64,000 bases of DNA. It comes from an uncultured Myxococcia bacterium. GTDB taxonomy: Bacteria > CAZTWC01. The notes beneath the pieces were generated by a model. It searched no databases. It had not been told where the DNA came from and saw nothing but the letters and a program-made list of their open reading frames with translations. The translations under genes were made by a program, and so were the position numbers. Position 1 is the stretch's first letter. Every line of letters begins with the position of its first letter. Shown one piece after another: positions 15,877 to 64,000 of the stretch. The stretch lies in NCBI GenBank assembly GCA_964617105.1, contig CAZTWC010000001.1, positions 1 to 64,000 on the forward strand, given 5' to 3'.

Positions 15877-15891
15877 TTATTTTTGATTTTA

Positions 15892-16266: not shown

Positions 16267-16269
16267 GTC

Positions 16270-17118
16270 ATGGGAATCACCATCAGAAGTAATGTAGCTT
16301 CGCTTATCGCTCAACGAAATCTCTGGAGTACCCAGAGAGATCAAAACCTCTCTTTAGAACGTCTCTCGTCTGGATTTCGCATCAATCGCGCTGCCGATGA
16401 TGCTGCCGGACTGGCAATCAGTGAAAATTTAAAAGCACAAATTAGAGGATTGAACCAGGCTAAACGTAATGCCAACGATGGCATAAGTTTGATTCAAACC
16501 GCTGAAGGCGCCTTGAACGAGGTCTCCTCCATCCTGATACGGATGAGAGAACTTTCGGTGCAAAGTGCTAATGACACTCTGGTTACCAGGGACCGCTCAT
16601 TTCTCAACGCCGAGTATAGCGCCCTTAAAAATGAGATCGACAGAATCTCGGAAGTTACCGAGTTCAACGGTCTGAAGTTAATCAACGGCGACATGTCCAC
16701 CAGTGCGGTGGATTTCCAAATCGGTCTGGATAGCAGCACAACCGATCGACTGTCGGTAACCATTGGTAATATTGGTACTGAGATGATCGGCTCTGGCAGC
16801 ACCCAGATCAATGCCACCTATATCAATACCAAAGCCTCTTCCCGTTCCTCTCTGGCAATTCTCGATAACGCCATCGATGATGTGGCTGAGGTGAGAGCCC
16901 GGATGGGTGCCTACCAAAACCGTCTTAACTCTACTGTGGTCAACCTGGCCAATACCTCGGAAAACCTGACCGCCGCCAATTCTCGTATCCGGGATGCAGA
17001 TGTGGCCAACGAAAGCGCCATTATGACCCGAAACCAGATCTTGATGCAGGCTGGAGTGTCCGTGTTAGCCCAGGCCAACTCGTCACCCCAGATAGCACTC
17101 CAACTGCTGCAGGGATAA
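16270..17118 (+). CDS. fliC: Flagellin A, copy 2
   Basis: Protein identical to 13815-14663. Confidence 0.97.
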   Translation: MGITIRSNVASLIAQRNLWSTQRDQNLSLERLSSGFRINRAADDAAGLAISENLKAQIRGLNQAKRNANDGISLIQTAEGALNEVSSILIRMRELSVQSANDTLVTRDRSFLNAEYSALKNEIDRISEVTEFNGLKLINGDMSTSAVDFQIGLDSSTTDRLSVTIGNIGTEMIGSGSTQINATYINTKASSRSSLAILDNAIDDVAEVRARMGAYQNRLNSTVVNLANTSENLTAANSRIRDADVANESAIMTRNQILMQAGVSVLAQANSSPQIALQLLQG

Positions 17119-17485
17119 GTTAACCTGGAGCCAGAAGCCGGCTAATCAAACCGAAGAAGTCGGCCCGATCTGACCGGGTATTTTTAGATTGTTAATATTT
17201 AGAAGTTTAAAAATCTGTATTCAAATTTTTAGAAAGGGGGTACTGCAATGCAAGAGATGAATGAATATGCTGGAGCACTGTTAGTTGCCAGCATGATGTA
17301 TCTAAAGTTATATGTAAAAGCATTAAGCAATGGCAGTCGATCATCACCGGTTATTGTCCCGGTATTCAAGCCGGAGGTAAAGATAGACAGGCCGGTAAGG
17401 AGGTACTGAAGTTCGAGTAAGCACAGAAGTTGAATTTGCCCCAAGCATGGAGGCTATTAATCAATAATCAAGGAGGAACGTTGTT

Positions 17486-18331
17486 ATGGGCATATCAATA
17501 CGAAGTAATATTGCCTCTCTAAACGCTCAGAGAGGCTTGTACGTCAACCGTTTGGAAATGGATAAAACGCTGGAAAGACTAAGTTCAGGATTTCGAATAA
17601 ACAAGGCCGCTGACGATGCGGCCGGTCTGGCTATCAGTGAAAATTTCCGGGCCCAGATCAGAAGTATGGACCAGGCCAAACGTAATGCCAATGATGGAGT
17701 CAGTTTGCTGCAGACCGCAGAAGGGGCTCTAAACGAAATCAGTGCAGTCCTGACCAGGATGCGGGAGTTATCGGTGCAGTCTGCTTCCGACACCCTGATC
17801 ACCAGAGACCGCTCATTTCTTAATAGTGAATTTGATAACCTGAAAAGTGAAATTGACCGGATCTCCGAAGTGACCAAGTTCAATGGCCGAAGCCTCATTG
17901 ATGGCACCTATTCAGCAACTGATTTGGACTTTCAAATAGGTATAGACGATGGGACTGACAACCGGCTGAGTGTAAATATTAAAAATGCCGGAACCGAAAT
18001 GATCGGCTCTGACAGCACGCAGGTAAACGCTTCCTATATAAACAGCAAAGCCAATGCCAGAACTGCTCTTCAGGTATTGGACGATGCTATAAACGATGTT
18101 GCCGAAGCTCGTTCCGATATTGGTGCATATCAGAACAGGCTCAACCATACTATTATTAACCTGGCCAACAGTTCAGAGAACCTTACTGCTGCAAATTCCC
18201 GTATCAGGGATGTTGACGTGGCACTTGAATCTGCTGAGATGACCCGAAACCAGATCTTAATGCAAGCTGGAGTTACCGTTCTTGCTCAGGCTAATTCTAC
18301 TCCTCAAACTGCGCTACAATTGTTGGGCTAA
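17486..18331 (+). CDS. fliC: Flagellin B, copy 2
   Basis: Protein identical to 15031-15876. Confidence 0.97.
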   Translation: MGISIRSNIASLNAQRGLYVNRLEMDKTLERLSSGFRINKAADDAAGLAISENFRAQIRSMDQAKRNANDGVSLLQTAEGALNEISAVLTRMRELSVQSASDTLITRDRSFLNSEFDNLKSEIDRISEVTKFNGRSLIDGTYSATDLDFQIGIDDGTDNRLSVNIKNAGTEMIGSDSTQVNASYINSKANARTALQVLDDAINDVAEARSDIGAYQNRLNHTIINLANSSENLTAANSRIRDVDVALESAEMTRNQILMQAGVTVLAQANSTPQTALQLLG

Positions 18332-18340
18332 AGGTTATTT

Positions 18341-18375
18341 AATTTTCCGGGGGCAGTAAATGCTCTCGGGAAATT
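18341..18375 (+). terminator. Hairpin after flagellin B copy 2
   Basis: AATTTTCCGGGGGCA-GTAAA-TGCTCTCGGGAAATT stem with G-U pairs. Confidence 0.55.
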
Positions 18376-18536
18376 ATAATGACTTACCTTATCATCTTTT
18401 TTTACCTTCCATAACGCAGTAATTCTAATATATTATCCCGATTTTTCAGTTCAATACAAGAGATAATTTTCTGGCATTTTATTTTCGATTAGGGTAGGTT
18501 CATTTTTTCATATAACGCGACAATAGGAGCATAAAA

Positions 18537-18944
18537 ATGAAAAAACTTGATCATATCGGAATAGCGGTCAAAGACTTGCAAAAAAGTAAAGCCTTCTATG
18601 AGCAAGCCCTGGGGTTTACATTGACAGGAGAGGTACTGGTGGAATCACAGGGGATAAAAACCGCCTTTTTCCAACTACCTGGAGAAATTAACTTAGAATT
18701 GATGGAGCCAAACGGGGCAAACCAGGAAACTTCTGCAATTGCCAAATTTTTATCTAAAAAAGGGGAAGGGATCCACCATATCTGTTTTGAGGTGGATAGT
18801 CTTGAAACTACCTGTAATAAATTAAAGGAACAGGGGGCGCAATTGATTTTTAAAGCACCCATAAAAGGCGCTCACCATAGCCTGGTTAATTTTATCCATC
18901 CCAAAACCACCTCTGGAGTTTTGATAGAACTTGCACAAAAATAG
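18537..18944 (+). CDS. mce: Methylmalonyl-CoA epimerase (VOC family)
   Basis: LDHIGIAV, LELMEP, GEGIHHICFEV, FIHPKTTSGVLIEL. Confidence 0.93.
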   Translation: MKKLDHIGIAVKDLQKSKAFYEQALGFTLTGEVLVESQGIKTAFFQLPGEINLELMEPNGANQETSAIAKFLSKKGEGIHHICFEVDSLETTCNKLKEQGAQLIFKAPIKGAHHSLVNFIHPKTTSGVLIELAQK

Positions 18945-44797: not shown

Positions 44798-47700
44798 TCA
44801 AGCGCTAGTTCCTACAGATAGCCCCAGATCTTGCCGCAAGTGAGCATATTTGGAACTGAGATAAAATTGCACCATTTCCATCAACTCCTGGCATGGAGAT
44901 AATTTTTCTGCGATTTCAGCAAAATCATCAGTCTGCTCCAGAGATATTTTATGTAATTCGATCATCATGTCTAAAGAAACAGCGATATCATCGCAAAAAA
45001 TCATGGCAATTCGATTGGCGGTGTTGATAGCAGCCCGGTAGTAATCAATAGCCGTAACCTGATTTAACTCTTTCTGGTTCCTAAAAAGAACCCCTGAAAG
45101 CAATTTACGGTTTTTGCTCGACAGAACTTTATCGATTTTTTGAGCCATCTCCTGGATAAAAGCCGGCGATTCGGCAATTTCCAATCCCGCTGCCCCGGTA
45201 ATTTTTAAAGCCTCTATAAAATCGGCCAGGTGTCCGCTTTTCAAAGAACTCAGCACCTGGTTTTGGGCCAACACAAAATAGAGTTGACGGGCCAATAAAA
45301 ATTTTTGCTTGGCTAAAGGATATTTTAAAAAAGTCTGACGGGCCAAAATCGCCGGCGGACTGGTATTTAAAAGTCTTATCAGCACTGGTGATCGGCTGGC
45401 AACGTATATATCCACCTTTTTATCAATGCCCATTACCCGGATAAAATTATCACAGGTTTCCCGTAAGGGATGGTCGGAGGAAGATATTTTTTCATTGCGG
45501 CTCAAGTTGTATGATTTTAAACTTACGGTAAAGAGTTTTGCTAATTCATCTCCCACCGCCAAAAAAGTTTCCCGCAACCAATTCTGCTCCCCTGAATGTA
45601 CTACTATATGGTTCATAGATGATTTGCCAATAAAGGTATTGGAGGATTGGCCCACTTTATTAGGGTATTGGTCTAAAAATTCCGCTTCAGATGGTGTAGT
45701 CTGGTTGAAAAAATCAATCAGGCGGCCAAAAAGAAAACTTCGGTCTAAATCACCGGCATCCCGATAGATTTGAAAAGCGCCATGATAGGCATTTATATCT
45801 AAAAAATTTTGGGCAAATATTTTTTTCAGTTCCGCCTCCGCTTTATCTCTCTGATCCGTATAGTCAGATAAAATTTGCGCTCTTTTTATCCGGATCTGAT
45901 TCTGCCGGGCCATATCTTCTCCAACTGCTTCCATCTCTTTATCCACCAATTTCAGAGCCTTTTCCGGCTGACCGGTATCCAGGAAAAACTGACCTATTTT
46001 ATCCAAAGCTGTTTGGTGGACCGGATCATCATCCAGGATTCGCTGGTAGTAATGGCTGGCTTTTTGGGAGTCTGAAAAGATATTCTGGTAAATGGCGGCC
46101 AGTTGAAGATTATATTGAATCCGAAACTCTGCTTCCTGGCAAATTTCAACCATTTGCTCAAATACCTGGATGGCGGCGTTCCATTCTTGTTCCTGGCATA
46201 ACAGCCGGGCTTTCTCTTCCAGGGCCGGTAGATGGTGTTGGTCCAACTCAAGAACCAGATCGAACTGCTCCAAAGCCTTTTGCTGCTGGTTATATCCCTG
46301 GAGGTAAATAATCCCTAGTTGATAATTAGCCAGAGAATGGATCTCTTTATCCATCTCTGGCTCTTTGTCAATAAGTAGCACCTTTTCCCATACCTGCTGC
46401 GCCTTTTCCCATGCCTCTTTTTGCAAGTATAGATGAGAGAGCATTTTTAGAGTGGGTATATGTTCTTCATCGATTTGAAGAATTTCCTGAAAAGTTTTCT
46501 CTGCCTGTTCCACATCGGCCAATTGATTGTGCAGCAACTCACCCATTCTAAGCATCAACCCGATTTTCTTTCCTTTGGCCTCAGTTGCTTCCAACTGCTC
46601 CTGATAGAGTTTCAACAGCACCTCCCACTGGCCCTGGTTGTATAGTAACTCTTCCAAGTCGTTTAAGGCTTCACCGTCACCAGGCTCCACCTCCAGAATC
46701 TCACGGTAAATTCTTATTGCTACCTCGGTTTGCCCCATTTTACTGTAAAGTTTGGCTCTCTCTTTCATTAAAATCATCTTAGATTTTGAATTTTTAAGCA
46801 GCAAAGATTCCTCTGCCGCCACCTCCAGGTAGTTTTCTATATTCCCCTCCCTAAAATGAACCCGGCGTAGGGTGTCCAGGGCGGCCAAAGCCGGCTCACC
46901 GGCACATAAAGATTCTCTAAGTCCATGGATAGCCTGGTCTATATCTGTGCCATAGGCGGCGCTAAGTTGTCCGGCTAAAAAATTGACCTGCCAAAACTCA
47001 TCTTCCGATCTGCATAAAAAACCAATCTCTTGCAACACCGCCAGAACACCTGGATGATTAGGCTGATTTTGAAAATAGCGCAGCAACGACTCCAGAGTAA
47101 AATGCTTTTGACTTTCCCAATTTTGAAAATAATCGATATATAAATTGGCTGCTTCGAAATAATCTTCTTGCCACCACTCTTTCAAAAAAGCACGCATCAA
47201 AGTATATAACTCCATTTCATCTTGATTGGCGGCATTTTCATGTAACTTCTGGAGTTGAACCACAACTCCCGACCAATCCTGCTGTCCGGCCTGCAATCTG
47301 GCTATAAAATCTTGCACCAGGTAGTTCTCCGGCAACTCCAGGGAGAGTTGATCCAGCAATTTCATCCCTTTTTCTTTATCAGCACCATCCCTTTTAATCA
47401 GCAGTAAGGCTAAGGCGAAAAGAATTCTACTCCGCCTTGGTTTAGAGATATTTTTTACCTTCAGCATCTTCTGGTAGGTTTCTTCCAGACTGGATATGTC
47501 CTTCTTCTGGCAGCATATTCTGGCTATAGCCTGTAGGCAAGGAAAGGTGAGACCTGCCTGGGGCAGCGCTCTTTGATACAGGGTGAAGGCGGATTTTTGA
47601 TCCTTGAGTTTGAATTCGAAAATAAGGGCCATGCGAAAAAAGATAACGGCCTGCTGTTGAGTATCTTTGAGGATTTCAGTTTCCTGATCCAAAGTTTGCA

Positions 47701-49912
47701 AAAGTCCGCTAATATCTTCAGTTTGGCGAAAAATCTTTTCCATTGCCCTTAAGGCAGTGATATCGTTGTGGTTCAATTTCAATATCTCTTCGTAATGGCC
47801 AATGGCGGCAGCGTGATCCCCCAATTTTTCTTCGGCAATTTGGGCCATTTTATGAATCATTGATTGGATTTGCAGTGGATCTTTCAGAGTGGCCACCTGT
47901 TTTTGCAGACTCTCTATGATCCGGGGCCAATCGTTGTTGATGGAATAAATTCTGCCCAGGGCTTGCAGGGCCGGTAGATAGGAAGGATTATTTTCCAACA
48001 CTTTTTCGTACCAATAAATCGCCGAATCCTGATTGTGCAGTTTCTCCTCATAAATTTCGCCATTTTTATACAAAAGGGAGATTATCTGATTTTTGTCGTT
48101 GATAGCCACTATCTCCCTGGTATTAACCGTTATCAAATCCTCCCAATGGCCAAGTTTGGCATAGAGTCTTCCCAACGTCCTGATGGAGGGCAAATCGTCC
48201 TGGTCTTTTTTTAAAAGTCGTTCATAGATTTCAACCGCCCTAACCAGGTCTTTCATTTGGTCTTCGTAAAGAACCCCTATTTTTTCCAACAAAAACTTTT
48301 GGTGACCCAGGTCTTGGGATGATTCAATTTCAGCCTCAAAAAGATCTATTAGATCCTGCCATCTCCCCTGTTGTTGATACAACTTGGCAATAGATTTTAA
48401 GGATGGTAGATAACTGGGATCTATTTTCATGGCCTTTTCATAAAATTCGATGGCCTGATAGGGATTATTCAATTTGTCTTCGTAAATTTCGCCGATTTTA
48501 TAGTAGATCACCAGTTTATGGCTATCATCTGCAACTTGTTCGGCCTCTTTTAGATAGAGTTGAACCAACTTTTCCCATTCTCGGTGTTTGGCTAGCAGCC
48601 GGCCTAGAGAATAGCGGGCCGGAAGATTATTAAAGTTTATTCGGATAACTTGCTGATAATAATGAACCGCCCCCTCTTCATCCGCCAGTTGTTCTTTTAT
48701 TTCCGCTAATTTCAAGTAAACCAGGGCCAGAGATTCGTCCCGATTCATCAATCCTGCCAATTGCTCCAGGTTTTTTACCAAACTGTCTAAATCACCAATC
48801 TCTTCATAGATCAAAGACAGTTCGTAAAGTGCCAAAAACCTGGTGGACTCAAGAGCGGTCGCCTTTTCCAACAACTCTTTTCCCTTTGGTTGGTCAGATA
48901 AAAATTCCTGGCATATCAAAGCGGCAAAATAGTATTCTGCGCCCAACTGGTCTGAAGATATCTCCCCCTCCTGTAGATAAAGATCTACCATACCCTGCCA
49001 CTCCAGATTTGCAAACTTGCCCTCCTGGAGTTTTTGCAACAACAACTCTCCATCTGGCAGGGCGGAATAGCACTGCTGAAACAGATTAAAACTAGTGGTG
49101 TTTTCTTCTCCTTGCCACAAAAAACCCTGAGCCAGCAAAATCGAGCCTTTCTCCCGCTGCTCCAAATCTTGCTCCTGGGTTAATAACCCCTGATAAAATT
49201 TGTTCAGTTCAGTCTTCTGTCCAATCCAGTAGAGAAGATATTGATACAAAAGCCGCAGCATCCGACTAGTCGGTGAAAGTTCAAGGGCTCCCTGCAGGGT
49301 GGCTATAGCCTCCTTTGGTTGGGATAATTTAAAGGTTTGCAAAAGGGTTTTCAGTAATAGCAGCCGCATTTTATAGGATATATCTGGAGATTTTTTTTCC
49401 AAATTTATCAGAAAATCTAGAGTTTCCAGGGCTTTTTTCCACTTTTTCCTTTGCAGGTATAGGTTCAGGCAAACTTTTAGATTTACTTTATCGCCCTGGT
49501 GTTTAGAGATGGCCTCAACAAAGTCATCCTGCGCTCCCGCTCCATCGTCCAGGCACAACTGTTTAAGCAGTCCCCTTTGCCGGAGTAAATAACTCTCTCT
49601 TTGCTCATCTTTCTCCGGTTCGATCTCTCCGGACAGGATAGTCAACACATCCTGAAAGTCTTCAGTGCTTAAAAGAGAATTTTCCTCGGCGGTCTCCCCC
49701 TCCACTGGAGTTAACAACTCTTTGGAAAGGGGTGGAAAAAGCGATCTCCGCCTGGCTGACGTTTCTACCTCTATCGCTTCCGGGACCGCTTCTTCGAAGG
49801 CTGGTTGAGTAGATTCCTCTTCCTGCAAACCAGAATCAAACCACTCTTTTTCAAAATCGCTAAACTCTTCCTGTTCTTGCTGCTCTTTTTTATCGTCCTG
49901 GGTGGAGGCCAT
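44798..49912 (-). CDS. Giant tetratricopeptide-repeat protein of myxobacterial type
   Basis: 1704 aa; acidic N-terminus; repeats such as IGEIYEDKL...AIEFYEKAMKIDPSYLPSL..LY...W.DL. Confidence 0.88.
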   Translation of the reverse strand: MASTQDDKKEQQEQEEFSDFEKEWFDSGLQEEESTQPAFEEAVPEAIEVETSARRRSLFPPLSKELLTPVEGETAEENSLLSTEDFQDVLTILSGEIEPEKDEQRESYLLRQRGLLKQLCLDDGAGAQDDFVEAISKHQGDKVNLKVCLNLYLQRKKWKKALETLDFLINLEKKSPDISYKMRLLLLKTLLQTFKLSQPKEAIATLQGALELSPTSRMLRLLYQYLLYWIGQKTELNKFYQGLLTQEQDLEQREKGSILLAQGFLWQGEENTTSFNLFQQCYSALPDGELLLQKLQEGKFANLEWQGMVDLYLQEGEISSDQLGAEYYFAALICQEFLSDQPKGKELLEKATALESTRFLALYELSLIYEEIGDLDSLVKNLEQLAGLMNRDESLALVYLKLAEIKEQLADEEGAVHYYQQVIRINFNNLPARYSLGRLLAKHREWEKLVQLYLKEAEQVADDSHKLVIYYKIGEIYEDKLNNPYQAIEFYEKAMKIDPSYLPSLKSIAKLYQQQGRWQDLIDLFEAEIESSQDLGHQKFLLEKIGVLYEDQMKDLVRAVEIYERLLKKDQDDLPSIRTLGRLYAKLGHWEDLITVNTREIVAINDKNQIISLLYKNGEIYEEKLHNQDSAIYWYEKVLENNPSYLPALQALGRIYSINNDWPRIIESLQKQVATLKDPLQIQSMIHKMAQIAEEKLGDHAAAIGHYEEILKLNHNDITALRAMEKIFRQTEDISGLLQTLDQETEILKDTQQQAVIFFRMALIFEFKLKDQKSAFTLYQRALPQAGLTFPCLQAIARICCQKKDISSLEETYQKMLKVKNISKPRRSRILFALALLLIKRDGADKEKGMKLLDQLSLELPENYLVQDFIARLQAGQQDWSGVVVQLQKLHENAANQDEMELYTLMRAFLKEWWQEDYFEAANLYIDYFQNWESQKHFTLESLLRYFQNQPNHPGVLAVLQEIGFLCRSEDEFWQVNFLAGQLSAAYGTDIDQAIHGLRESLCAGEPALAALDTLRRVHFREGNIENYLEVAAEESLLLKNSKSKMILMKERAKLYSKMGQTEVAIRIYREILEVEPGDGEALNDLEELLYNQGQWEVLLKLYQEQLEATEAKGKKIGLMLRMGELLHNQLADVEQAEKTFQEILQIDEEHIPTLKMLSHLYLQKEAWEKAQQVWEKVLLIDKEPEMDKEIHSLANYQLGIIYLQGYNQQQKALEQFDLVLELDQHHLPALEEKARLLCQEQEWNAAIQVFEQMVEICQEAEFRIQYNLQLAAIYQNIFSDSQKASHYYQRILDDDPVHQTALDKIGQFFLDTGQPEKALKLVDKEMEAVGEDMARQNQIRIKRAQILSDYTDQRDKAEAELKKIFAQNFLDINAYHGAFQIYRDAGDLDRSFLFGRLIDFFNQTTPSEAEFLDQYPNKVGQSSNTFIGKSSMNHIVVHSGEQNWLRETFLAVGDELAKLFTVSLKSYNLSRNEKISSSDHPLRETCDNFIRVMGIDKKVDIYVASRSPVLIRLLNTSPPAILARQTFLKYPLAKQKFLLARQLYFVLAQNQVLSSLKSGHLADFIEALKITGAAGLEIAESPAFIQEMAQKIDKVLSSKNRKLLSGVLFRNQKELNQVTAIDYYRAAINTANRIAMIFCDDIAVSLDMMIELHKISLEQTDDFAEIAEKLSPCQELMEMVQFYLSSKYAHLRQDLGLSVGTSA

Positions 49913-52086: not shown

Positions 52087-53502
52087 ATGGCAACCACGGC
52101 GCAGAAAAGTAAATTCTTAACGATGATTATCACCTATTTCAGAGACTTCAAAGTGCTCAAAGAGACCAAATCGGAGTATTGGGGAGTCCAGATAATCAAT
52201 TTTCTAGACTGCACCGCCTATTTTGCCCTGTTAAATGTGGTCACCCTTTTTCTCTCCGAAGATATCGGTTTTAACGATAAAAACGCTGGGTACGTTATCA
52301 CTATTTTTACCTCTGCCACCACCCTATGCCTGTTTGTTTCCGGGCTGACCTCTGATTGGCTGGGGATAAAAAAATCCCTCTATGTGGCCATGGGTGGCAA
52401 CCTGCTGTTGCGATTCGGGGTGGCTTTTTTGGGATTAGCCGGGGATTTTCCTCACCGGGGCCTACTGGTGGCAGCCTGTTTTTTTCTAATGGCTCCCTTT
52501 ATGGCTATGGTGCAGACCGTTTTTCAGGCATCTAACAAACGTTTTACCACCAAGCGTTCACGAGGCGCTGGTTTTAATCTCTGGTATCTGTTTATGAACC
52601 TTGGCGCAATGTCTGGCGGCTTTCTGGTTGATATTATTCGCAAAAGCATGGGGTTGTCCAACTCATACATAATATTGGTGGGTGGAATTACCGGCATACT
52701 CTGTACCCTGACCATCATTTTTATGGTGCGGCGTGAGGAGCAATTGAAAGGCCCGGAGGATGAGGCGGCTGAACCTGAGGTGGAAGCCGAAATAAAAGTG
52801 CGCAAATCACCCATACAGATCGCCAAAGAGGTTTTATCGGAACCCACTTTTTACCGTTTTTTGGTACTCATCGCTTTAACTCTGGGAGTGAGGGCTGTTT
52901 TTACTTACATCTACCTGCTGATGCCAAAATTCTGGATACGGGTAATAGGACCTGATGCCGCCATTGGCTCCTTAAATGCCATCAACCCCTTTCTTATCGT
53001 AATCGGGCTGATACTGTTTATCCCCCTGGCCAATAAATTCAATATCTTCAAGATGCTCACCTATGGTTCGGTAATTTCGGGTCTATCCATCTTTGCTCTG
53101 GTTATTCCATGGCAGTGGATCAGCAACGATATTGTCTACTCCACCTATTTCCTCTCTATTGTTTTAATGGTAATTCTCAGTATCGGCGAGGTGATCTGGT
53201 CGCCAAAACTATCGGAGTACACTGCGGCCATTGCTCCGCGAGGACAGGAGGGAACTTATCTGGGGCTCTCTATGATCCCCTGGTTTTTGGCCAAAACAAT
53301 AGTCAGCGCCGTCTCCGGTCACATGCTGGCTCGCTGGGCGCCTAAAGGGATCGGTGCACAACTGCAGGCCGGGACGGTCTCGTTCTGGGATTCTCCCAGC
53401 GCCATGTGGCTCTATTTGGGCATCGTGGCCGTGGCCGGCCCCTTACTGGCTATCGCCTTTTCCGACTGGCTGACCAAAGGCGCACGCTGGAAAACCGAGT
53501 AG
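52087..53502 (+). CDS. MFS transporter, peptide/POT-like
   Basis: About 12 TM helices; GFNLWYLFMNLG, INP, GEVIWSP..EY...AP.GQEGTY. Confidence 0.88.
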   Translation: MATTAQKSKFLTMIITYFRDFKVLKETKSEYWGVQIINFLDCTAYFALLNVVTLFLSEDIGFNDKNAGYVITIFTSATTLCLFVSGLTSDWLGIKKSLYVAMGGNLLLRFGVAFLGLAGDFPHRGLLVAACFFLMAPFMAMVQTVFQASNKRFTTKRSRGAGFNLWYLFMNLGAMSGGFLVDIIRKSMGLSNSYIILVGGITGILCTLTIIFMVRREEQLKGPEDEAAEPEVEAEIKVRKSPIQIAKEVLSEPTFYRFLVLIALTLGVRAVFTYIYLLMPKFWIRVIGPDAAIGSLNAINPFLIVIGLILFIPLANKFNIFKMLTYGSVISGLSIFALVIPWQWISNDIVYSTYFLSIVLMVILSIGEVIWSPKLSEYTAAIAPRGQEGTYLGLSMIPWFLAKTIVSAVSGHMLARWAPKGIGAQLQAGTVSFWDSPSAMWLYLGIVAVAGPLLAIAFSDWLTKGARWKTE

Positions 53503-53509: not shown

Positions 53510-55843
53510 CTAGTGCTTTGTACCCGGTTTAAGCAAAGATAGCATAACCGGAGTAAATAAAAGATCCGCCATTAGCGCTACTAAAATAATAATACTGCCT
53601 AAAAGGCCAAAGGTGTTATTGGCGGGAAAACTGGAAAAGATAAAGATTGAAAATCCCGCCACCAACACTATGGAGGTGTTGAGCACTGAGGTTATGGTGT
53701 GAGCAGTAGCCCGTTCGATTGCCTCATAGCAGGCATAGCCCCGGTTTAACTCCTCCAGATAACGAGAGATCAAGTGAATGGTATCGTCAACTGCTATCCC
53801 CAAAGCAATGGTAAAAATCACCGCCGGCGCCGGATCCAGATAGATATTAAACAGGCCAAAACCTCCCAGGCATAAGATTAACGGGAGAATATTGGCAAGA
53901 ATACTAACCAGAGCAATTCTGTAACTCTTAAACACCACCCCAATAGTGACGGTAATTACCAATAGAGCCACAAAAAGGCCCAAAATCAATTCATTGGCTA
54001 AAGTGGCTAAACTGCTGGCCACCACCACCGGTGAACCGGTTACCCCGGCCAGGATATTGGTTGGGGCAAAAATACTATCCAAATCACCTAAAAACGCCCT
54101 TTTAATCTCCAATAATTTTTTGCCCCCCACATCCTGGCAAGTGGCAAGGATTCGGGCCTGGGAAAAATCGTGGCTAACAAAACGGCTCAGCATAGACCCG
54201 CCGCCGCTCTCAAAAAACAGTAAGAGTTGAGCAATAGCATTTTTAGCCTCCGGTATTTTATGATAACCGGCAAATTGATGGTTAAGTTCAGCCACGATTC
54301 CCGCCAGGCTGACGCTGCTTTTCATCCCATATTTGTTGAGCAATAACTCTTCTGCCCGGGCTATTTTGGCCAATATGTCGGGGTCTTGAAAATCCCCCTC
54401 TTTTCCAGCCAAATTGACCTCAAATGAAACCAAACCGGCCAATTTTTCCTCCACCAGGTCATTCCCAAGGGAAACCGGATTTTGGGCTGATAAAAGTTTG
54501 GTGGTATAGTTATTAATCTCTACTTGCTGACAAAAATATAGGCCTATTAGGCTGCTTATCACGCCTAAAATCAATATGAGTTTAGCAGTAGATGGCTTGA
54601 TAATAGCCCGGACAAATAGAAGGATGTATCTATTAATCTTTATTGGCGCTTTGGCGGCGCCTGATTTACTAAAATAGAGACCTACCGGCAAAATGGTGCA
54701 AATCATCAAAAACGAGATGAGCACTCCAATGGCTACAATGGTGCCAAATTGGTGTAAAACATCCATTTTGGCAAATAATAAAGAGGAAAAGCCGATGGCT
54801 GTGGTAAAACTGGTGAGCAAACAGGCGGGAATAATTTTCTTGCCAGACTTAATCACTGCTAATCGATAATCTCTTCCATGCCGGCGCTCCTGGTGATACC
54901 GGCCTAAAAAATGGACAGCATCAGCCACGCCGATTACCATCAATAATATAGGAAAGATACTGGTCAAAGGATTTAAGGTGGCGCCCAACAACCCGATTAT
55001 GCCCAGAGTAGCCGATATGCTAAACAAAATCGCTGTCAAAGGCAAAAACAGAGCCTGCTTTTTTCTAAATTGTCCAAACAGAAAAAAAGCAATCATCACC
55101 AGAGCAATTGGAGTAAGATTTCTCAAATCGTATTTGATGCTCTTTAAGGCTGCCACCCTGATAAAAGGGATTCCAGCAAAATATCTTTTTACCTCCAGAG
55201 GTGACCCTTGTTGGAACGCCAAGATCTGTTGATCTACCAATTTTTCAATCTTTTTGGCTATTGGTTCCAATAATTTTACCTGCCGGTATTTAGGCGGCAT
55301 CCGGCCGGCAATAACCAGTAGTTTGCCATCTTTGGAGATCAAATGCCGGGTAAGCAAAGATCTCTTGACCATGGCCAGGCGGGAGGTAAAATCTCCCCTA
55401 TATTTGGATTTGGAGCCAAAGAGTGTAGACACCAATAGATCGTCGTATTGTTTTAGCATCACCGCTGTATGGGTAATGGAGTCAATACCCGAAATCTCCT
55501 TTTGCCGGTTGAGTAGTTGGCTAAGCGACTGAATAAGTGGAATAATTTGCAGGTTATTTTCTGATAATGGTTTTGTCGTCTCCAGTAGAATAAAAAATCG
55601 GGTTTCATCAGAATCGAATAACTCCTGGTGCTTCTCTAAAAATAGGACTTGTGCACTACCGGAAGGAAAAAAATTGCGGATATCACTGTCAAATTTTACA
55701 TCTTTGGCAAAATAGGTCAAAATCAAAGTAAACGCGATAACCAAAACTGAAATCAAAATCGGGCGCTGGATTATTAAAATGGTGTAATCTTTAAAAACTT
55801 CATTAAAAAAACGGGTTATGGCAGTGCCTCTTGTTTTAGACAT
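53510..55843 (-). CDS. MMPL/RND family transporter
   Basis: Two repeats with IGVADAVHFL and LGIAVDDTIHL; start overlaps the megasynthase stop. Confidence 0.9.
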   Translation of the reverse strand: MSKTRGTAITRFFNEVFKDYTILIIQRPILISVLVIAFTLILTYFAKDVKFDSDIRNFFPSGSAQVLFLEKHQELFDSDETRFFILLETTKPLSENNLQIIPLIQSLSQLLNRQKEISGIDSITHTAVMLKQYDDLLVSTLFGSKSKYRGDFTSRLAMVKRSLLTRHLISKDGKLLVIAGRMPPKYRQVKLLEPIAKKIEKLVDQQILAFQQGSPLEVKRYFAGIPFIRVAALKSIKYDLRNLTPIALVMIAFFLFGQFRKKQALFLPLTAILFSISATLGIIGLLGATLNPLTSIFPILLMVIGVADAVHFLGRYHQERRHGRDYRLAVIKSGKKIIPACLLTSFTTAIGFSSLLFAKMDVLHQFGTIVAIGVLISFLMICTILPVGLYFSKSGAAKAPIKINRYILLFVRAIIKPSTAKLILILGVISSLIGLYFCQQVEINNYTTKLLSAQNPVSLGNDLVEEKLAGLVSFEVNLAGKEGDFQDPDILAKIARAEELLLNKYGMKSSVSLAGIVAELNHQFAGYHKIPEAKNAIAQLLLFFESGGGSMLSRFVSHDFSQARILATCQDVGGKKLLEIKRAFLGDLDSIFAPTNILAGVTGSPVVVASSLATLANELILGLFVALLVITVTIGVVFKSYRIALVSILANILPLILCLGGFGLFNIYLDPAPAVIFTIALGIAVDDTIHLISRYLEELNRGYACYEAIERATAHTITSVLNTSIVLVAGFSIFIFSSFPANNTFGLLGSIIILVALMADLLFTPVMLSLLKPGTKH

Positions 55844-58800
55844 ATGTAACTCCATGGTTTACTGTCTCTTTAACTCTCTCCACAGTTTCGGATGAGATCT
55901 GATAATCGCCAATATGGAGTGGTGACGCCTCAATACCCAGGATGGAGATTTTTTTCCAGTAGTTAAGAGCCACCTGGCCGTCAACCAGACCGTGGATACA
56001 GGAGAGTTCCATATCATCGGCAATAAGCAGCGATTCCATGCGGCAGCCGGCCACTCCCTTTAGATAAGGGGCCAGATTGCTATCCAGAATTTTCTCCAGG
56101 TTAGATTTGCCTGGCAGGTTGCCCATAAAAAATTCCCGTTTGAAATCGCCAACATCCAGCATGCCTCCGCCGCTAATAATCAAATCCTGCTGTTTGGCCA
56201 CCCGATTTTTGGCCATATCCAAGTTGACAATAGAGGGAAATGAGTCATCTACCAGCAACATGCTGGGTTTTAATTGGTCCACCGCTAAAATCTGTCCGCT
56301 AGAAGAGGCTCCAATTAGCAAATCGCACTGATTAACCCTATCGGGGAGGCGATCTTGCACTGGAATTATCTCAATGGGACCGGAATAGAGCGATTTAAAA
56401 GTTCCCAAACCCTTTTCAATATATTTTACCTGCTGCTCCCGCTCAAAAATAGTAATGCTGGCAGGATTGAGGGAAAGATTCAGTAAAAGTTCCATGGTGG
56501 ATCGGCCAATGGAGCCAAATCCAATTACACCAATCTGAAGATTGGAAGGAGACAACTCCAACCGGTCCAACAGGCCTAAAATGGTTTTGGCCATGGCTAC
56601 CACTGTAGAGCCGTGGCCAGTGGTGAGCAGTGGTGCAGACTCTCTGTCCAGTTTATCCTGTCTGGACATATCCAGTGGCATGGAAAGTTGCTCCAACACC
56701 GAAAAACCGTAACCAGTATAAGAGGGCAAAAGTCCGGCCAGAGAAACCACCCGGGCCCCCAGATCCTTAGCTAAGGAGATCCCTTTAACTATATGCCGGA
56801 CTAGAGTCTTTTGCCCCAGTTTAGACAGATGATCGGCAAAAAAGGGCAAAAATATAGAACCTGATACTCCCAGCCGGGTATCAATAGACTCCACCAATTG
56901 CGGCATCTGATCTGAAAAAAACATATCCACCATTTTGGAAGCAGGCAGATGGGACAAGCCCATTTTGGCCAAAATCTGCTGCATCGATTTTTCAGGGGGC
57001 AAATAGCAAATCAGGGCGGCATCAATAGCGGTTTTAAGCCCTTTTTTTGATTTGAGTGGCGTTGATTTCTTCTGCTCCTCCAGTTTCTCAGCCGGCTCAA
57101 CCTCCACAAGGTGATAAACTGCCTGTTTACTCTCCTCCATTATGAGGCGGTGCAGATCCTCCGGCAAACTGGAATGGAGGTTGAATCTAAGTTGATCTCC
57201 AGCCATCACATTGAGAGACAATTGAGTATCTGTAGCGCCCGCGGAATAGTGAAAAACACACTGGTTCCATTCTATTTGGAGTGTCTCACTAACCATGGCT
57301 GGCAAAGAGGTAAAATCCATAAAGGACATGAAGAAATCGGAGCCTGGCGGATAAGGTGAGCCTGGATGCCGCTTGATCTTTTGCGCCATTTGCTCAGAGG
57401 ATAGATCTCCATGCTCCATGGCGCCGGTAAAAGCCTCGGCCACGGCAGCCAAATCCTGGTTAAAATCTTCCCCTTTGATTAAACACCTTATGGGCAAACC
57501 CGCGGTAAAACAGCCAAAAATTCTATTGATATCATCAATGGGCAAATCGCGGCCGCTGGTGGCAATACCCACAATTTGATCGGCAATATCGGCGCGTTTT
57601 TGCAAAATTCTAAACAATAAAGTCAGCATACAGATAAACAGGCTCTGTCTATGGGCTATAGCTAACTGACGCAAAGCCCTGGTCTCGGCCTTCGAAAAAA
57701 TATGAGCAGAGGAGAAACTCCTGGTTCGGGCATCAGGGCCATCTGGGAGGTTATCCTGAAAGTCTGGCGGATATAGAGTTACTTTGGGCCAGGGCTGGGC
57801 ATAGCGCTCCTGCCAATATTGGCTGCTTTCCTTGGAGGCCTGCTGCCGATTTTGCTGATAATAGGAGACCACATCTCTATAGGATGACACCAGTGGAGTA
57901 AGTTGTCCCGAGACCTCTTTTTCTCTCTCTTTATTTAATTTATCATAGAGTTGCAGAAGCTCAGAACCCAAAAGGTGCAGACTCCAGCCATCACCGATTA
58001 TATGGTGCACAGCAATCAGCCAATAGTATTGGTCGTCTTGGGCGCAGATCATCTGCATCTTGAAAAGCGGCCAGGTTTCCGGATCAAATATCTTCTTTTT
58101 CAAGTTAATAAAATACTGTTCAATTATTTCCATTTGTTGTTCAGAAGAATTTCCAGCCATCTGGGGCCGTAAATCAATAAACGGCAAAATCTGGTCTGAA
58201 TCAATACTCTCCATAGCGATAATTTTTTGTTTGGTTTTTACCCCTTCTTTAACAAATATTGCCCTCAGCATGGAATGGCGATCAAGCAACCTGGATAGAA
58301 CCTGCATAAAGAGTGGCCTATCAATTTTGCCTTTAACCGGTATAATGGCACACCATTTAGGGCAACTATCGGGCTTTAGCCTTTGGGAGAGGAGGAATCC
58401 CGCCTGGGAAGGGGTCAAATCAAAACTCTCCTCGGGGTGATGTGCCGGGGGCTCGATTTGAGCCTGATTCTCTATAGATGATTCTTCTCCACTCTCTTTC
58501 TGCCGAGCCAAAAACTCCAGATGTTCTGCCAAAGCAGCAATAGTTCTCTTATTATATAATGTTATGGGACGCGGCAGTACAGGAACCTGCCCCCGCAAAC
58601 GCTGCAACATATCCAGGGCTAAAATGGAATCACCACCCAGGGAGAAAAAATCTTCCTGATCATCTATCTGGGCCAACCCCAGAAGGTCCTGCCAAATAGC
58701 CATCAGTTTCTCTCTAAATGATCGATTTACCCCAGAACTTTTCTGAATTACCGAGGCTATAAATTGCTTGACTAAAGAGTGCCGGTCAATTTTTTGGGCT

Positions 58801-61800
58801 CCGGTCAAAGGAATTTCCGAGACCACCTGGAGGCGGTGGGGGATCATAAAGTCGGGCAGCTGTTTTTGCAAAAAATTCAACAGGTTTTCCGCCAAATCCA
58901 GGCCGGAGTCCGGGGAAACCGGCTCTACAAAAGCCACCAGCCATTGCCGCTTTCCATCCCGATATTCAAGCACCGCTGCTGACCTCACCTGGGCATTAGA
59001 GAGCAAGGTGGCCTCTATTTCGCTCAACTCAACCCGGTTGCCACGAATCTTTACCTGATCATCATTGCGCCCTAAAAAAATCAGGTCGCCTTTGGGGTTC
59101 GCTTTGGCCAGATCACCGGTTTTGTATAACCTGCCCTCAATTCCCGGCACTGAAACAAAAGCGGTTTTGGTCAATTGTTCGTCGGCCAAATAACCGCTGG
59201 CCAGACTCTCTCCCCCCACATAGATCTCCCCAATCTCTCCCGGCGAGCAGAGAACTCCATCTGGATTGATTAAATAGATTTTCGAACCCAGCCTGGCCTT
59301 GCCAATAGGAACCTGGGTCTCATTATCCCGGGGAGGTCCTTTTACCTCGTACCAAATGGCATTGACCACGGTTTCAGTTGAACCGTACAAATTGGCAATC
59401 CGGTGACTGAAACCAAAGCGATCGAGCCAGCGCCGTATTTGTTCTGCCAGTACCTGTTCTCCGCCGATAAGGACCCAACGCAAATGATCCAGGTTTACTT
59501 TCCTCTGCTGGCTATTCAAAATATCAACATAGTCAAGCAGGCTCATCAACAAAGTAGGCACTGAATTCCAGATGGTGATCCGGTTTTGTTCTAAAAAGTT
59601 GACCAACCGGTCAGGATCTCGAGTAATATCTTTACCCACCGGGTAAACTGTGGCTCCGGCTAACAGAGGTGAAAATATCTGCCGGATGGAACCGCCGAAA
59701 CTGATGGAAGAGGTCTGGATAAACCTGTCCTGGGCGGTGATAGAAAAAGCCTGCTGCACCCAATCGTGAAAAATTGAGGCAGCCCGGTGGCTGACCAGGA
59801 CACATTTGGGCTTGCCCGTGGTGCCAGAGGTGTACATGCCATAGGCAATATCTTCCGGAGATACCCGGGGTAAATCGCTCAAATCTTCTGTGGGATAAAT
59901 ATCCAACACCTGGGACCAGGTTAGCAGGGGCTGGTCAATACTGTCGGGTTGTTCCAGACCGTCATTATCCAGCAGTATTATCTGAGTTATCTGGGTATCC
60001 TGGTACAGAGAGGCCATCCGGGTCAATTGACGACCCTGGGTCAAAACCACTTTGACCTCAGAATGGGAGACCATATTGACTATCCTTTGGTCTGGATATT
60101 CCGGGTCTATGGGAGTATAGGTGGCGCCGCTGGCCAAGATAGCCAAAATCCCCACAATAGCCTCCACCCCGGGACTGGCCAGAATCCCTACCATATCTTT
60201 GGGTTTGACACCCTGATCTATCAAAGCCTGAGCCAGGCTTTTGGCCCGTTTTCCCAACTCCTCATAACTAATAGTTTCCTGGGCAGTTACAACGGCCGTA
60301 TCTTCTGGAATCTGCCCGATTTTATCAAAAATACGTTGGTGAATCACCTCTCCGGAAGAGAGTTGCTCGGGTTGAGTCTCCAGAGAAGGTTGAAGGGTGG
60401 ACTGGGATGATAAAAACCGGCCATAGTCACCGATAGAACCCTGGCCCCTGGACTGGATAATCTTTTTCAAAAGATCCTGGTGCTGCCTGGCCAACTGCTG
60501 AATAGTCGTTTTTTTAAACAGCGATTCGGTATAATTCCAGGAGAAGTGTAAACATCCGGAGAACTCCCAGCCGATAAGACCCAATTGGGTAAACCCGGAG
60601 GCAGAACCTCCGCGCATAGATTCCACCTTCAGAGAACCGAAATTGGAAGCAGAAGGAAAATCTGGCCAACTAAGACCGGCAGGAGTAACACCGCGCGGGC
60701 CTTGAGATTTACGATCTCCATAAATACCGGCGATCTCCAGAGAGGAAGTAAGAGGAAAACGCTGGGCCCTGGTAATCTCCTGCTTAACCAACTGAAACAG
60801 ATCTGGCAGGGTTATATCTTTTTCCAGTTTGATCCGCACCGGAAGAGAATCGGCAAAAGATCCCACCACCCTGGTAATATCGGTCACTCTGGCTTCGCGG
60901 CGAGCATTGGCCACCCTGATCACAATATCCTTTTCCCCAGACAATTTGTTTAGCAACAGGAGATAACTGGCAAAAATCAGATGCAAAGAGGAGATACCCA
61001 TCTGGCTAGTCAAAAGAGCCAGGGCGGCTGAAGTCTCTTTATCCAAAATTTGCAGATGGATACTACAGGGACCGGTAGGCTCGGCTAAGGGATCAGAATC
61101 AAAAGGAAGCGCCAGAGCTCCCGGCGGATTCTGCAAAACCTCTTTCCAGTACTGGCGGCTCCTTTCACCATCCTGACTGCGGGCCGAATTCTCGATAGCC
61201 GCCGCACAACTGGTAAAATTGCTCTGCAAAGCCGGTAAAAGATGGTTGCGCCCCTGCTCAAAGCGGCGGTGGATCTCCAAAAGTTCACTCACCATTATTT
61301 GGGCGCTCCAGGCATCGGCGACAATATGGTGAATATTGAACATCAGGCAATATTGGTTGGGGGCCAGGCGGCATAAAATAATCCGGTAAAGAGGCCCCTT
61401 TTCCAGGTCAAATACTCTATTTAAAACCTGCGTCTCCAGGTTATCTAAAAATTGATTTTGCTCTGCACTATCTTTAGTGCACAGATCCAGACTCTCTATT
61501 TCTGGAACGGAAAAACCGCCCTTTCGCTGAATTAACTCTCCCTGTTCCCACAAAAATATATTCTGCAAAACCTGGTGACGTTGAAAGAGTTGTTCATTGG
61601 CCTGCTCCAAATTTTCCAGAGATATGGCGCCGGTTATTTGGATCCGCATAAAGACATAGCAGGGCATATGGGGATAAAAAGATTGGTTGGCAAAAAAAGT
61701 TTTCTGCGCGGGCAACAGGGGCAAGGGGATCTCTTTAACCGGAGATTCCTGGGCCAATTCATTTAAATAGGCTGTCAGTTTTGATACCGTGTCATACTCG

Positions 61801-64000
61801 AAAAGCAAGGTATTATCCAAAGTTACCCCAAGTTCTTTTTCCAACTCTTTCACCATATCAACCGCGGTAAGCGAATTTATTCCCAGGTTGAACAGGGGGA
61901 CATCAGCATCGATTTGATCTGGCGTCAGGTCTAAAGCATCGGCCAGCATCTGGCGCACCAGATCCTCTATGCTGCCTGAGGAGATCAATTTATCCTTTTG
62001 GACCGCCAACTCACCGGAACTGGTATCTACAACCAGCTCTGAAGTTTTTTTAACCAATGGCGGTGAGAGAGCCGGAGAGGAAAAGGTGGAGCCCTCAGTG
62101 GATACTGCAGGAGATGAGGGTGGACCAACAGTGGAAATGATATCATCCTGCAGGAAAGATGAAGCAGGATCTTCCTTAAGGTCTCGGGGATCCAGGGCCA
62201 GGCTCAGCCAATGACCGCTGGCCAAAGCCAGAGGCAAACACTGAACTGCATCCTGGGGCAATAAAGGATGAATATTAAAAATCTCTTTCACTTTACTCTC
62301 ATCCATGGTGGCGATCATGCCTACCTTTTGCCACAGAGACCAGGCCAGGGAGAACCAGGGTTTTCCCTGGCTTTTTTTCCGGCCGGCAAAGATGTTCAAA
62401 AAAGCATTGGCTGCCCCATAGTCGGCCATCCCCTTTGAAAACCTGGCAGATAATTGAGTAAAGGCGCCTGAAATGGAAGATATCAAGAGCACGAAACCAT
62501 AATCTCTATTGGTAAGGGCTGCCTCCAGGTTCAAAGTTCCCAACACTTTTGGCTTAATAACCTTCTCTATTTCTGAAAGATCTTTTTTCAGCAAAGATCC
62601 GGCAGAGATAAGGCCTGCGCCCTGAAAAACACCCTGAATTTTGCCATACTTTTGAAAAAGTTTAGCTATCAGTCCCTGTAAAGCCTGAAAATCGAGAATA
62701 TCTACTTGAAAATACTCTGGCTGGGCACCCAGTTTCTGCAACTCTTCTAAATTGGCTCCCATCTCTTCTGCTGATCGCCGTCCAGTGAGGATAAGCACCG
62801 GATTATCAACCTGGCGGGCCAGATATTTGGCCAGGTAAAAACCGACTCCGCCGCTGCCGCCGAGAATCAGATATACTGACTTGGGAGAGGTTTGAAAAAA
62901 GTCACTCTGCCCAGTTCCAATTGGTAAAGATGTAACAACCGGTGTCAGATTACCGCTGTCCCTAATTGCTGCCGGTGCAAAAGAACGATTTTTTAGGCCT
63001 TCCTTTATCTGAACAGCCGCTTTTTCCAGTTGCAACTCTTCCCAGTTCACCTCCAGGTCGATCACCTGGCCGGTNNNNNNNNNNNNNNNNNNNNNNNNNN
63101 NNNNNNNNNNNNNNNNNNNNNNNNNNNNNNNNNNNNNNNNNNNNNNNNNNNNNNNNNNNNNNNNNNNNNNNNNNCCTGGCCGGTGATACAACTATTGGCA
63201 GTGACAATATGCAGCGGCGCCTTTAGTTGGGCTGATATAACCCCTTTTAAAAATGAGCGCAGCCGGGAAATATCCTCCGTCAACTGGGAATAATCCTGAT
63301 CTGAAGAGGAAAATTTCATGGGCCCAAAATTGCCCAGATAAATAACTCCCGCAATTTTCAATGGGCCCAGAGAGCTTATTAACCATCTGAAATGATCACT
63401 GTTTTTCGGATCCAGAATAAAAGTATACTCTGAATCACGAATAAAGGCATCGCCCTGAAACAGGGCAAAAACCTCTCTATGAGGATGGCCATCCCCTTTT
63501 ATCTGATGGGCCAATACCTGGGCGAGACCCTGCTGATCTGCCATAATTAGCCAGGCCCCCTCTGAAAAAGAGCCTGAAGATGATTCTGGTGCTGCTTGCC
63601 ACTCTATCTGGTGCAGTAAACTCTGGATCCGCTCCTCTCCTGATGGAGATTTCTGAGTACTCAAAAATTCCTGGCCGCCAATCTGGATGCCCTCCCCTTG
63701 AGCCTCTTCTGCCAACATTAAGTCCTCATCCTGTAAAAATTCGGTTTTATACTGACGACCCAAAAAAGGGATTGAAGGGATTGAAAAAGAGTTTATGGGT
63801 TGGGAAGGTAAAATCGGGGTCCAGTTCAGGTTGAAGCCCTGGGTCCACAAACTGCCCAGCACGCTTAAAAATTGCTTAAGTTGCTCCGCCTGAACCTTTG
63901 CCTCCCTGACCGCTGGCTCCTCTTGAGCAGAGGACCCGGGTGCCCGGCTTAGAAAAAAACTTCTATTTCTATCTTTGCCTGATAACAGGGATCTGCACAG
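55836..64000 (-). CDS. Hybrid PKS-NRPS megasynthase, 5'-partial: post-AT linker, structural KR, KR, ACP, C, A, PCP, C, reductase-like terminal domain; interrupted by a 100-N gap
   Basis: Frame open from 64000 (LGSLWTQG..W..IPSIPF); KR GGSGGVG/DYGAAN; ACP LGINSL; C HHIVADA and HHIIGDG; A YTSGTTGKPK, YGSTE, YKTGD, QVKIRGNRVEL; PCP LGGDSI. Confidence 0.92.

Follow-up and report, generated by a model that had tools for sequence, protein, structure and literature searches.

The terminal amidation domain (TAD) family was described in 2024-25 from CarI (carmabin), VatR (vatiamide E/F) and HcaD (hectoramide B), each of which carries a 400-residue end domain and gives products ended by a primary amide (Rankin et al., bioRxiv 10.1101/2024.10.28.620694). 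The present work concerns a domain of this kind at the C-terminus of a polyketide synthase/nonribosomal peptide synthetase (PKS-NRPS) of an uncultured Myxococcia bacterium (GenBank assembly GCA_964617105.1). The DNA that was analysed, called the window below, comprises positions 1 to 64,000 of contig CAZTWC010000001.1, which is 77.9 kb long. A sequence-only reading of the window had proposed that the synthase ends in a domain resembling acyl-ACP reductase (AAR) and the N-terminal part of PigE. This domain was thought either to release the chain as an aldehyde from a Cys residue or to process a partner for the last condensation (C) domain, and the whole was regarded as a candidate for an undescribed system.

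According to the main text of the preprint, the CarI TAD forms dimers, its N lobe being macro-like and its C lobe a Rossmann domain, and binds NAD(H), not NADP(H). Its hallmarks are an invariant Cys2238 beside the nicotinamide, a TTG motif, a GxGxxG motif, Asp2102, which governs the choice of NAD, and a DDSGP loop, of which Asp2170 stacks on the nicotinamide. Cys2238 lies within reach of the arm of the CarI peptidyl carrier protein (PCP), as indicated by crosslinks and by a disulfide with dephospho-CoA. Substrate release by the CarI TAD was not seen, whether NAD(H), metals, ammonia or one of the 20 amino acids was supplied, and several amide-forming schemes were put forward, one of them a reduction followed by reoxidation. 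In all, 757 TAD homologues were reported from many phyla, mostly at the C-termini of NRPSs, and no consistently co-occurring gene was recorded (10.1101/2024.10.28.620694). In this main text 'C domain' occurs 0 times and 'condensation' twice in other contexts, and it holds no statement on a TAD preceded by a C domain. Nor did literature searches turn up further work on TAD chemistry or a paper on a synthase ending in C-TAD.

The related enzymes of demonstrated chemistry are reductases. In AAR an acyl-Cys294 thioester is formed and then receives a hydride from NADPH (PMC7089970); the catalytic Cys is described as equivalent to that of the TADs, and AAR lacks counterparts of the TAD's first strand and first helix and forms no dimer (10.1101/2024.10.28.620694). 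TamH is described as an NADH-dependent enzyme of reductive off-loading from the TamA carrier (PMC9594044; 10.1101/2025.08.11.669332), and PigE as a thioester reductase acting on a thioester intermediate (PMC8341465).

Results

Affiliation of the terminal domain

The domain is encoded by the 3′ end of an open reading frame (ORF) at 55836..63191 on the minus strand, which specifies 2451 residues. Pfam families occurred along this ORF in the order ketoreductase (KR), acyl carrier protein (ACP), C, adenylation (A), PCP and C, while the ~400 C-terminal residues matched no Pfam family above threshold and gave weak NAD-binding matches alone. The sequence-only reading had described the final C domain as followed by neither a thioesterase (TE) nor a reductase (R) domain of the short-chain dehydrogenase/reductase (SDR) type. 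Both searches agreed with this, as the ORF product had 0 Pfam matches to a thioesterase or NAD_binding_4/R-type family at E <= 0.1 and no GxSxG motif occurs from residue 1561 to the C-terminus. All six motifs quoted in that reading were found in the order given there, and the codon at 56043-56045, assigned to Cys, is indeed TGC. The span assigned to the domain, 55836..57040, was about right; the conserved part covers 55839-57026, and 55836 takes in the stop codon.

Searching PDB sequences with phmmer yielded the CarI TAD chains 9E4X, 9E4S, 9E50, 9E56 and 9E4U, deposited as 'amino acid adenylation domain protein' (best E 7.7e-32, query residues 100-443). The next match was PigE (4PPM) with E 0.009. 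A family profile of 19 homologues matched the CarI TAD chains with E 1.8e-123, PigE (4PPM) with E 6.6e-21 and with the Cys aligned, and AAR with E 1.4e-08; the profile alignment to AAR ended before the Cys, and a search with the last 140 residues matched CarI alone. An AlphaFold2 model of the window TAD, built from 19 homologues, reached pLDDT 88.5 and pTM 0.89, and the conserved Cys opens the model helix 351-361. With this model, Foldseek ranked ten chains entitled 'TAD from carmabin biosynthetic pathway' at the top (E about 1e-34 to 2e-35, TM 0.77-0.81, 24-26% identity). These were followed by four AAR chains (E 8e-18 to 3e-16, TM 0.61-0.62 by query and 0.74-0.75 by target; 8e-18 and 0.62/0.74 for 6JZU) and then by generic 2-hydroxyacid, formate and amino-acid dehydrogenases (TM about 0.3). 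The likeness to AAR and PigE seen from the motifs was thus real. For PigE it was also detected by the NCBIfam model NF053554, which matched in its reductase, non-transaminase part only (E 1.3e-12; 46.9 bits, cut-off 850). No aminotransferase domain was matched by Pfam in the window synthase. The AAR model TIGR04058 had 0 matches at E <= 0.001 in the whole window genome, with the control Synechococcus elongatus above the cut-off.

An alignment of 134 near-full-length homologous domains, which also served for the tree (FastTree, midpoint-rooted) and for all residue counts below, revealed that the window TAD retains every hallmark residue but one. TTGH, GxGSIG, DDSxP, a later Arg and Asp, and the Cys are kept, the last being present in 132 of the 134 domains, which confirms the conservation that had been expected of it. 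At the NAD-selecting position the window has Glu and 127/134 homologues have Asp, so that the residue remains acidic. In PigE and AAR, Asn replaces the His after T(T/S)G, and Val or Gly replaces the second Asp of DDSxP; at both positions the window TAD is of the TAD type and not of the reductase type.

The window domain therefore almost certainly belongs to the TAD family, with a two-lobed AAR-like fold, a predicted NAD(H) site and an invariant Cys. It is a divergent member of a described family and not an undescribed kind of domain. The novelty suggested by the sequence-only reading does not hold at this level, since the best match in both sequence and structure, the CarI TAD of the carmabin pathway, has already been crystallised with NAD(H) and the domain is thereby largely characterised in a known cluster.

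The window TAD agrees with the CarI TAD in whole-domain fold, Cys, TTGH, GxGxxG, an acidic residue at the NAD-selecting position, DDSxP with its second Asp and the place at the end of an NRPS. It differs in following a complete C domain, whereas the CarI TAD follows a PCP, and in belonging to a separate clade with Glu instead of Ser at the third position after the Cys (Cys+3) and Phe instead of Gly/Ala in the DDSxP loop. Further differences are the Glu in place of the NAD-selecting Asp and a host protein that is a conserved single-module PKS plus single-module NRPS outside the cyanobacteria. AAR (6JZQ, 6JZU, 6JZY; TIGR04058) shares the two-lobed fold with its Rossmann domain and the TTG motif, but acts as a free-standing NADPH-dependent partner of ADO, and in it TTG is followed by Asn and the second Asp is replaced by Gly; the window domain is fused to an NRPS and acidic at the 2′-phosphate site. 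The reductase domains of PigE (N-terminal) and TamH (C-terminal) show whole-domain homology, an aligned Cys and Glu at Cys+3, and off-loading from a carrier protein is probably common ground. They are, however, fused to a pyridoxal-phosphate-dependent transaminase and not to an NRPS; their TSG is followed by Asn, and Val stands in place of the second Asp. SDR-type R and TE domains occupy the same terminal off-loading place, but their fold and catalytic residues are unrelated to those of the window TAD.

The C-fused clade

A homologue search of a library of 50%-identity clusters returned 673 representatives at E <= 1e-3 and 110 at E <= 1e-30. The best 150 of the 673 (P0004 among them), together with P0003 and the window's own protein, were parsed with hidden Markov models (HMMs) for C, carrier-protein, A and TAD domains built in this analysis; one of the best 150 is the window's own 382-residue library entry. 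Among these 152 proteins the domain directly before the TAD was a C domain in 70 and a carrier protein in 58, and 24 were too short. The nearest homologues of the window TAD were almost all C-fused. A CarI-like motif was present in 13 proteins, of which 12 were PCP-fused and one was short.

In the tree, one clade with support 1.0 contained all 67 C-fused domains and 0 of the 55 PCP-fused ones. Characteristic residues accompany this division. Cys+3 is Glu in 66/67 C-fused and Ser in 53/55 PCP-fused TADs; the window reads GCRMES, and PigE also has Glu (GCMAE). The variable residue of the DDSxP loop is Phe in 64/67 C-fused TADs and Ala, Gly or Ser in PCP-fused ones. The Cys itself is retained in 65/67 C-fused TADs. 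Among the terminal C domains of the clade, the second His of HHxxxDG is conserved in 56/57 and the Asp in 57/57, and these C domains likewise form a clade of their own (57/57 and 1 other, support 0.91). It is very probable that the window TAD lies in a separate clade whose members always stand behind an intact terminal C domain (PCP-C-TAD). The architecture, a C-TAD ending on a conserved synthase with FAAL (fatty-acyl-AMP ligase), PKS and NRPS parts, was not found described in the literature.

Organisation of the synthase

A run of 100 N near 63.1 kb splits the synthase gene into a FAAL-KS-AT frame and a KR...TAD frame. Beyond the run lies a frame of 1784 residues with an AMP-binding domain of the FAAL type, a ketosynthase (KS) and an acyltransferase (AT). 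The two frames are most likely one gene, because only the N run separates them, and homologues of 3.8-4.3 thousand residues hold the whole domain order in one protein. The whole synthase is thus most likely FAAL-KS-AT-KR-ACP-C-A-PCP-C-TAD, about 4200 residues in length. A loading ACP between ligase and KS was not detected in the window genome (best carrier-protein HMM match, E 0.59); the spacing between the two domains is only ~45 residues (about 575-620 of the frame L001:3062-8416, minus strand), and most homologues read FAAL-ACP-KS. Two more runs, of 10 N each, occur elsewhere in the window. The positions of the domains and motifs are compiled in Table 1.

Table 1. Features of the synthase and of its neighbourhood. 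Positions are those of the window; for positions prefixed L001, L001:8416 is contig position 68416.
Feature	Position	Strand	Basis or remark
MFS transporter gene, membership of the cluster uncertain	52087..53502	+	Pfam MFS_1 E 7.3e-26
MMPL/HAE3-type RND transporter gene	53510..55855	-	Pfam MMPL E 4.6e-39; TIGR00921 E 5.4e-66
TAD-family (AAR-fold) C-terminal domain, residues 2056-2451	55839..57026	-	phmmer, AlphaFold2 model, Foldseek
GCRMESLL motif	56025-56048	-	sequence read
Glu at Cys+3, specific for the C-fused clade	56034..56036	-	66/67 C-fused TADs
Conserved active-site Cys codon TGC, residue 2383, aligned with CarI Cys2238	56043..56045	-	phmmer alignment
GGG motif	within 56160-56174	-	sequence read
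LLVDDSFP loop, equivalent to CarI DDSGP, with TAD-specific second Asp (CarI Asp2170)	56235..56258	-	DDSxP in 133-134/134 homologues
Glu at the position of CarI Asp2102 (residue selecting NAD over NADP)	56442..56444	-	Asp in 127/134 homologues
IGVIGFGSIG; GxGxxG dinucleotide-binding loop is GFGSIG	56505..56534	-	counterpart of the CarI 2076-2081 motif
LTTGHGST; TTG motif followed by TAD-specific His	56604..56627	-	T, G, H in 133-134/134 homologues
LGARVVSLAG motif	56733-56762	-	sequence read
Terminal C domain, HH of HHIIGDGWS at 58002-58007	57168..58424	-	Pfam PF00668
PCP, Ser codon 58626-58628	58515..58712	-	Pfam PP-binding; HMM built in this analysis
A domain, unusual pocket	58791..60314	-	Pfam AMP-binding; specificity positions from hmmalign alignment
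A4 motif FGGS, equivalent of the alpha-amino-binding Asp235 is Gly	59688-59699	-	hmmalign alignment
First C domain, chain transfer from ACP to NRPS module	60453..61724	-	Pfam
ACP of PKS module	61764..61961	-	Pfam PP-binding
KR domain	62328..62876	-	Pfam KR, E 1.4e-36
FAAL-KS-AT reading frame, part in the window	63062..64000	-	reaches contig position 68416 (= L001:3062-8416)
TtcA gene, 16 nt upstream of the synthase, same strand	L001:8433-9254	-	NCBIfam
ExbB, ExbD, TonB and TonB-dependent receptor set, divergent from the synthase	L001:9576-14158	+	no match in the 26 related loci

The ten positions of the specificity pocket of the A domains were read, by a procedure of our own, from an hmmalign alignment anchored on core motifs. 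Some PCP-fused proteins gave Asp-like and Pro-like signatures, in agreement with the codes for these amino acids, and the register of the alignment looks right for this reason. In the C-fused clade the last A domains fell into two related signature groups in 53 of 53 cases. The alpha-amino-binding Asp235 was replaced by Gly in 22 of them, 21 of which, including the window, were identical at all ten positions, with Arg 239, Asn 278 and Asn 331. Asp235 was retained in the other 31, mostly together with Arg 239. The ten pocket residues of the window are accordingly unchanged in 20 other synthases of the clade from different bacteria. Signatures of the PCP-fused clade were diverse, and Asp235 was retained in 45/46. 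As a lead only, Arg 239 presumably points to an acidic group on the substrate, and the loss of Asp235, also only as a lead, presumably to activation of a carboxyl group without a neighbouring amino group.

Conservation of the synthase in other genomes

C-fused proteins that were long enough had the order KS-AT, carrier, C, A, carrier, C, TAD, the exception being P0072, which had no KS-AT match; in the forms of 3.4-4.3 thousand residues a unit of A/FAAL and carrier was fused in front. A genome scan with a single protein gave 120 pattern matches, 0 of which encoded a relative, and among 60 genomes related only at domain level the TAD was found in the window's own genome alone, a result of little weight at such a distance. 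Scanning with a 6-sequence alignment yielded 26 loci. A C domain directly preceded the TAD in all 26. The order KS-AT-ACP-C-A-PCP-C-TAD was read in 16, while seven loci were cut by contig ends and three had no KS-AT match in the DNA covered. According to the titles of the records, the hosts comprised Bradymonadales, Polyangiaceae, Archangiaceae, other Myxococcota, Saprospiraceae, Polaribacter, Chloroflexia, Sericytochromatia and two Streptomyces, as well as metagenome-assembled genomes (MAGs) labelled Rickettsiales, Enterobacterales and Pseudomonadota. The C-TAD clade thus sits in one conserved lipo-amino-acid synthase that is spread over many phyla.

Neighbouring genes and other features of the window

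The start of the MMPL gene overlaps the stop codon of the synthase by 20 nt. A PP-loop ATPase gene upstream of the synthase had been considered as a nitrogen donor, but was rejected, as it encodes TtcA, the tRNA 2-thiocytidine synthetase (NCBIfam 271.4 bits, cut-off 272). No PP-loop homologue adjoins any of the 26 related loci in the DNA covered, whose flanks rarely extend upstream of the synthase. When the MMPL, MFS, ExbB, ExbD, TonB and TonB-dependent receptor proteins of the window and four other neighbours were used in phmmer searches, 0 of the 26 loci gave a match. A role in taking up a secreted metabolite might be read from the divergent ExbB-ExbD-TonB-receptor set, but the set lacks conservation among the relatives. 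Pfam analysis of 31 ORFs downstream of the synthase in 16 of the 26 loci revealed no common family except SDR in three Bacteroidota loci. In these, a FabG-like SDR gene directly follows the C-TAD synthase on the same strand (L085:11151-11951, L093:11094-11888 and L090:11223-12032). Further on, a GH3-family amido synthetase is encoded in L093, and in L090 the opposite strand encodes an asparagine synthase.

Elsewhere in the window, a 2455-nt unit with two flagellin genes (282 and 281 residues, 72% identical) is tandemly repeated at 13815-18724. The copies are letter-identical over the first 2049 nt, and the tandem may have arisen by very recent duplication or through misassembly. A 1704-residue protein consisting largely of tetratricopeptide (TPR) repeats is encoded at 44798-49912 (minus strand) between the transporter region and housekeeping genes, and adjacent paralogous DUF3857/DUF3858 transglutaminase-like genes, one of them broken by a 10-N run, lie at 3413-7553 (minus strand). 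The window genome measures 4.07 Mb in 489 contigs and is 96.5% complete. For its S-adenosylhomocysteine hydrolase, the identity to the enzymes of Bacteroidota and other FCB-group MAGs does not exceed ~71%, none of the genomes covered was related to it more closely than at domain level, and the host lineage seems poorly sampled.

Discussion

From the domains present, the FAAL/PKS part would activate a fatty acid, extend it once and reduce it to a 3-hydroxyacyl chain. The first C domain would then join this chain to an unusual, probably acidic, amino-bearing substrate on the PCP, which would have been loaded by the A domain lacking the alpha-amino-binding Asp. The C-TAD pair would then release the chain, which, to judge from CarI and AAR, would pass through a thioester on Cys2383 beside the nicotinamide, and the lipid would be exported by the MMPL transporter, as the overlap of the two genes suggests. 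Taken as a whole, this explanation (TAD family, C-fused clade, thioester on Cys, release with an amide end, export) appears about as likely to be right as wrong. The step by which the chain would leave with a nitrogen-capped (amide) end is put forward tentatively, with somewhat less than even probability, on the analogy of the described TADs; in this step the terminal C domain would catalyse or guide the attack of a nitrogen nucleophile. An amide end is favoured because, within the family, products are linked to three pathways only, those of CarI, VatR and HcaD, all of them giving amide-ended products, and because the window carries the two TAD-specific residues.

Several observations weigh against this explanation. 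By the preprint's main text, neither ammonia nor NAD(H) nor any of the 20 amino acids elicited activity from a TAD in vitro (10.1101/2024.10.28.620694), so that the amide end is argued solely from product structures of the PCP-fused clade, and the literature searches gave no product for any C-TAD synthase. The C-fused clade has Glu at Cys+3 as in PigE, where CarI-type TADs have Ser, and this points to reductase-like or hydrolytic chemistry. The CarI model also leaves the conserved active C domain between PCP and TAD unexplained. No nitrogen-donor gene was found nearby, and the neighbours are not conserved in the relatives; moreover, the substrate of the A domain is a prediction from pocket residues only. 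Caution about the amide end is due mainly to the active C domain and to the Glu after the Cys, which do not fit the CarI model.

The same Glu, common to nearly all of the C-fused clade and PigE, would be accounted for if the chain passed from the PCP to the Cys and, with NAD(P)H as the reductant, left as an N-(3-hydroxyacyl)-amino aldehyde, a course like that of AAR, TamH and PigE. All superfamily members whose chemistry is described as demonstrated act in this way, and a reduce-then-reoxidise route is allowed by Rankin et al. (10.1101/2024.10.28.620694). Such a release is nevertheless rather unlikely here, as the His after TTG and the second Asp of DDSxP are of the TAD type, TIGR04058 found no match in the whole genome, and no partner transaminase or aldehyde-using gene lies nearby. 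A simple reductase would, in addition, have no need of a conserved active C domain between PCP and TAD. The aldehyde release proposed from the motifs was not supported either by the authors of the TAD study, who proposed amide formation and, as their text reports, could reconstitute no activity.

The C domain would find its role if it was itself the release catalyst and the TAD made or held the acceptor nucleophile for the condensation, the chain never residing on the TAD Cys. Terminal C domains release chains onto free amines in VibH and in the rhabdopeptide and xenortide synthetases. In the C-TAD synthases the TAD occupies the usual place of an A domain after C, both active sites are conserved together, and the terminal C domains and the C-fused TADs each form their own clade, as expected of a co-evolving didomain. 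The pocket of the last A domain, moreover, is fixed only in the C-fused clade. The second option of the sequence-only reading, in which the C domain condenses a partner processed by the TAD, fits the constant fusion of this clade to an active C domain. This arrangement is nevertheless improbable, as the near-invariant Cys is more easily explained as a chain carrier, in keeping with the access of the PCP arm in CarI, and the literature searches turned up no precedent for an acceptor-making domain. Far less probable still is a decayed or purely structural remnant with release by spontaneous or trans-acting hydrolysis. The lack of a TE in cis and of any reconstituted TAD activity would agree with it, but the window has all catalytic and cofactor motifs in intact form, these are conserved over 134 homologues from many phyla, and the AlphaFold2 model is confident.

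Off-loading through the thioester on Cys2383 with an amide end thus stays the preferred explanation. More speculatively, and rather doubtfully at present, C-TAD might be an off-loading machine of its own kind. It would pair two co-evolved active sites, the C-domain His and a Cys/Glu/His/Asp NAD site, at the end of a single-gene lipo-amino-acid synthase that ranges from Myxococcota and Bacteroidota to Chloroflexia, relatives of the cyanobacteria and Streptomyces, and would make undescribed exported lipids or signals derived from N-(3-hydroxyacyl) amino acids. Their end group would arise by a chemistry without precedent among assembly lines; the TAD might, for example, produce or hold an acceptor, which the C domain would then condense. 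The second site of C-TAD, as predicted from its residues, mixes those of the reductase type with those of the TAD type.

For the window alone, the 'undescribed system' becomes a member of a described family with unproven chemistry. The sole study of the TADs, by its main text, solved structures without reconstituting the reaction (10.1101/2024.10.28.620694). For tests of the chemistry, the C-TAD clade is a less complex object than the large cyanobacterial pathways, with one gene that encodes one PKS and one NRPS module, no conserved helper genes and the same architecture in many phyla. The end group of the small lipo-amino-acid product of one such gene should reveal the chemistry, and the class-specific residues (Glu versus Ser after the Cys, Phe versus Gly/Ala in the nicotinamide loop) together with the obligatory C domain are concrete points of comparison. 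Should the product prove to be a lipid or signal that is new, exported and common to many uncultured lineages, it would also be of ecological interest.

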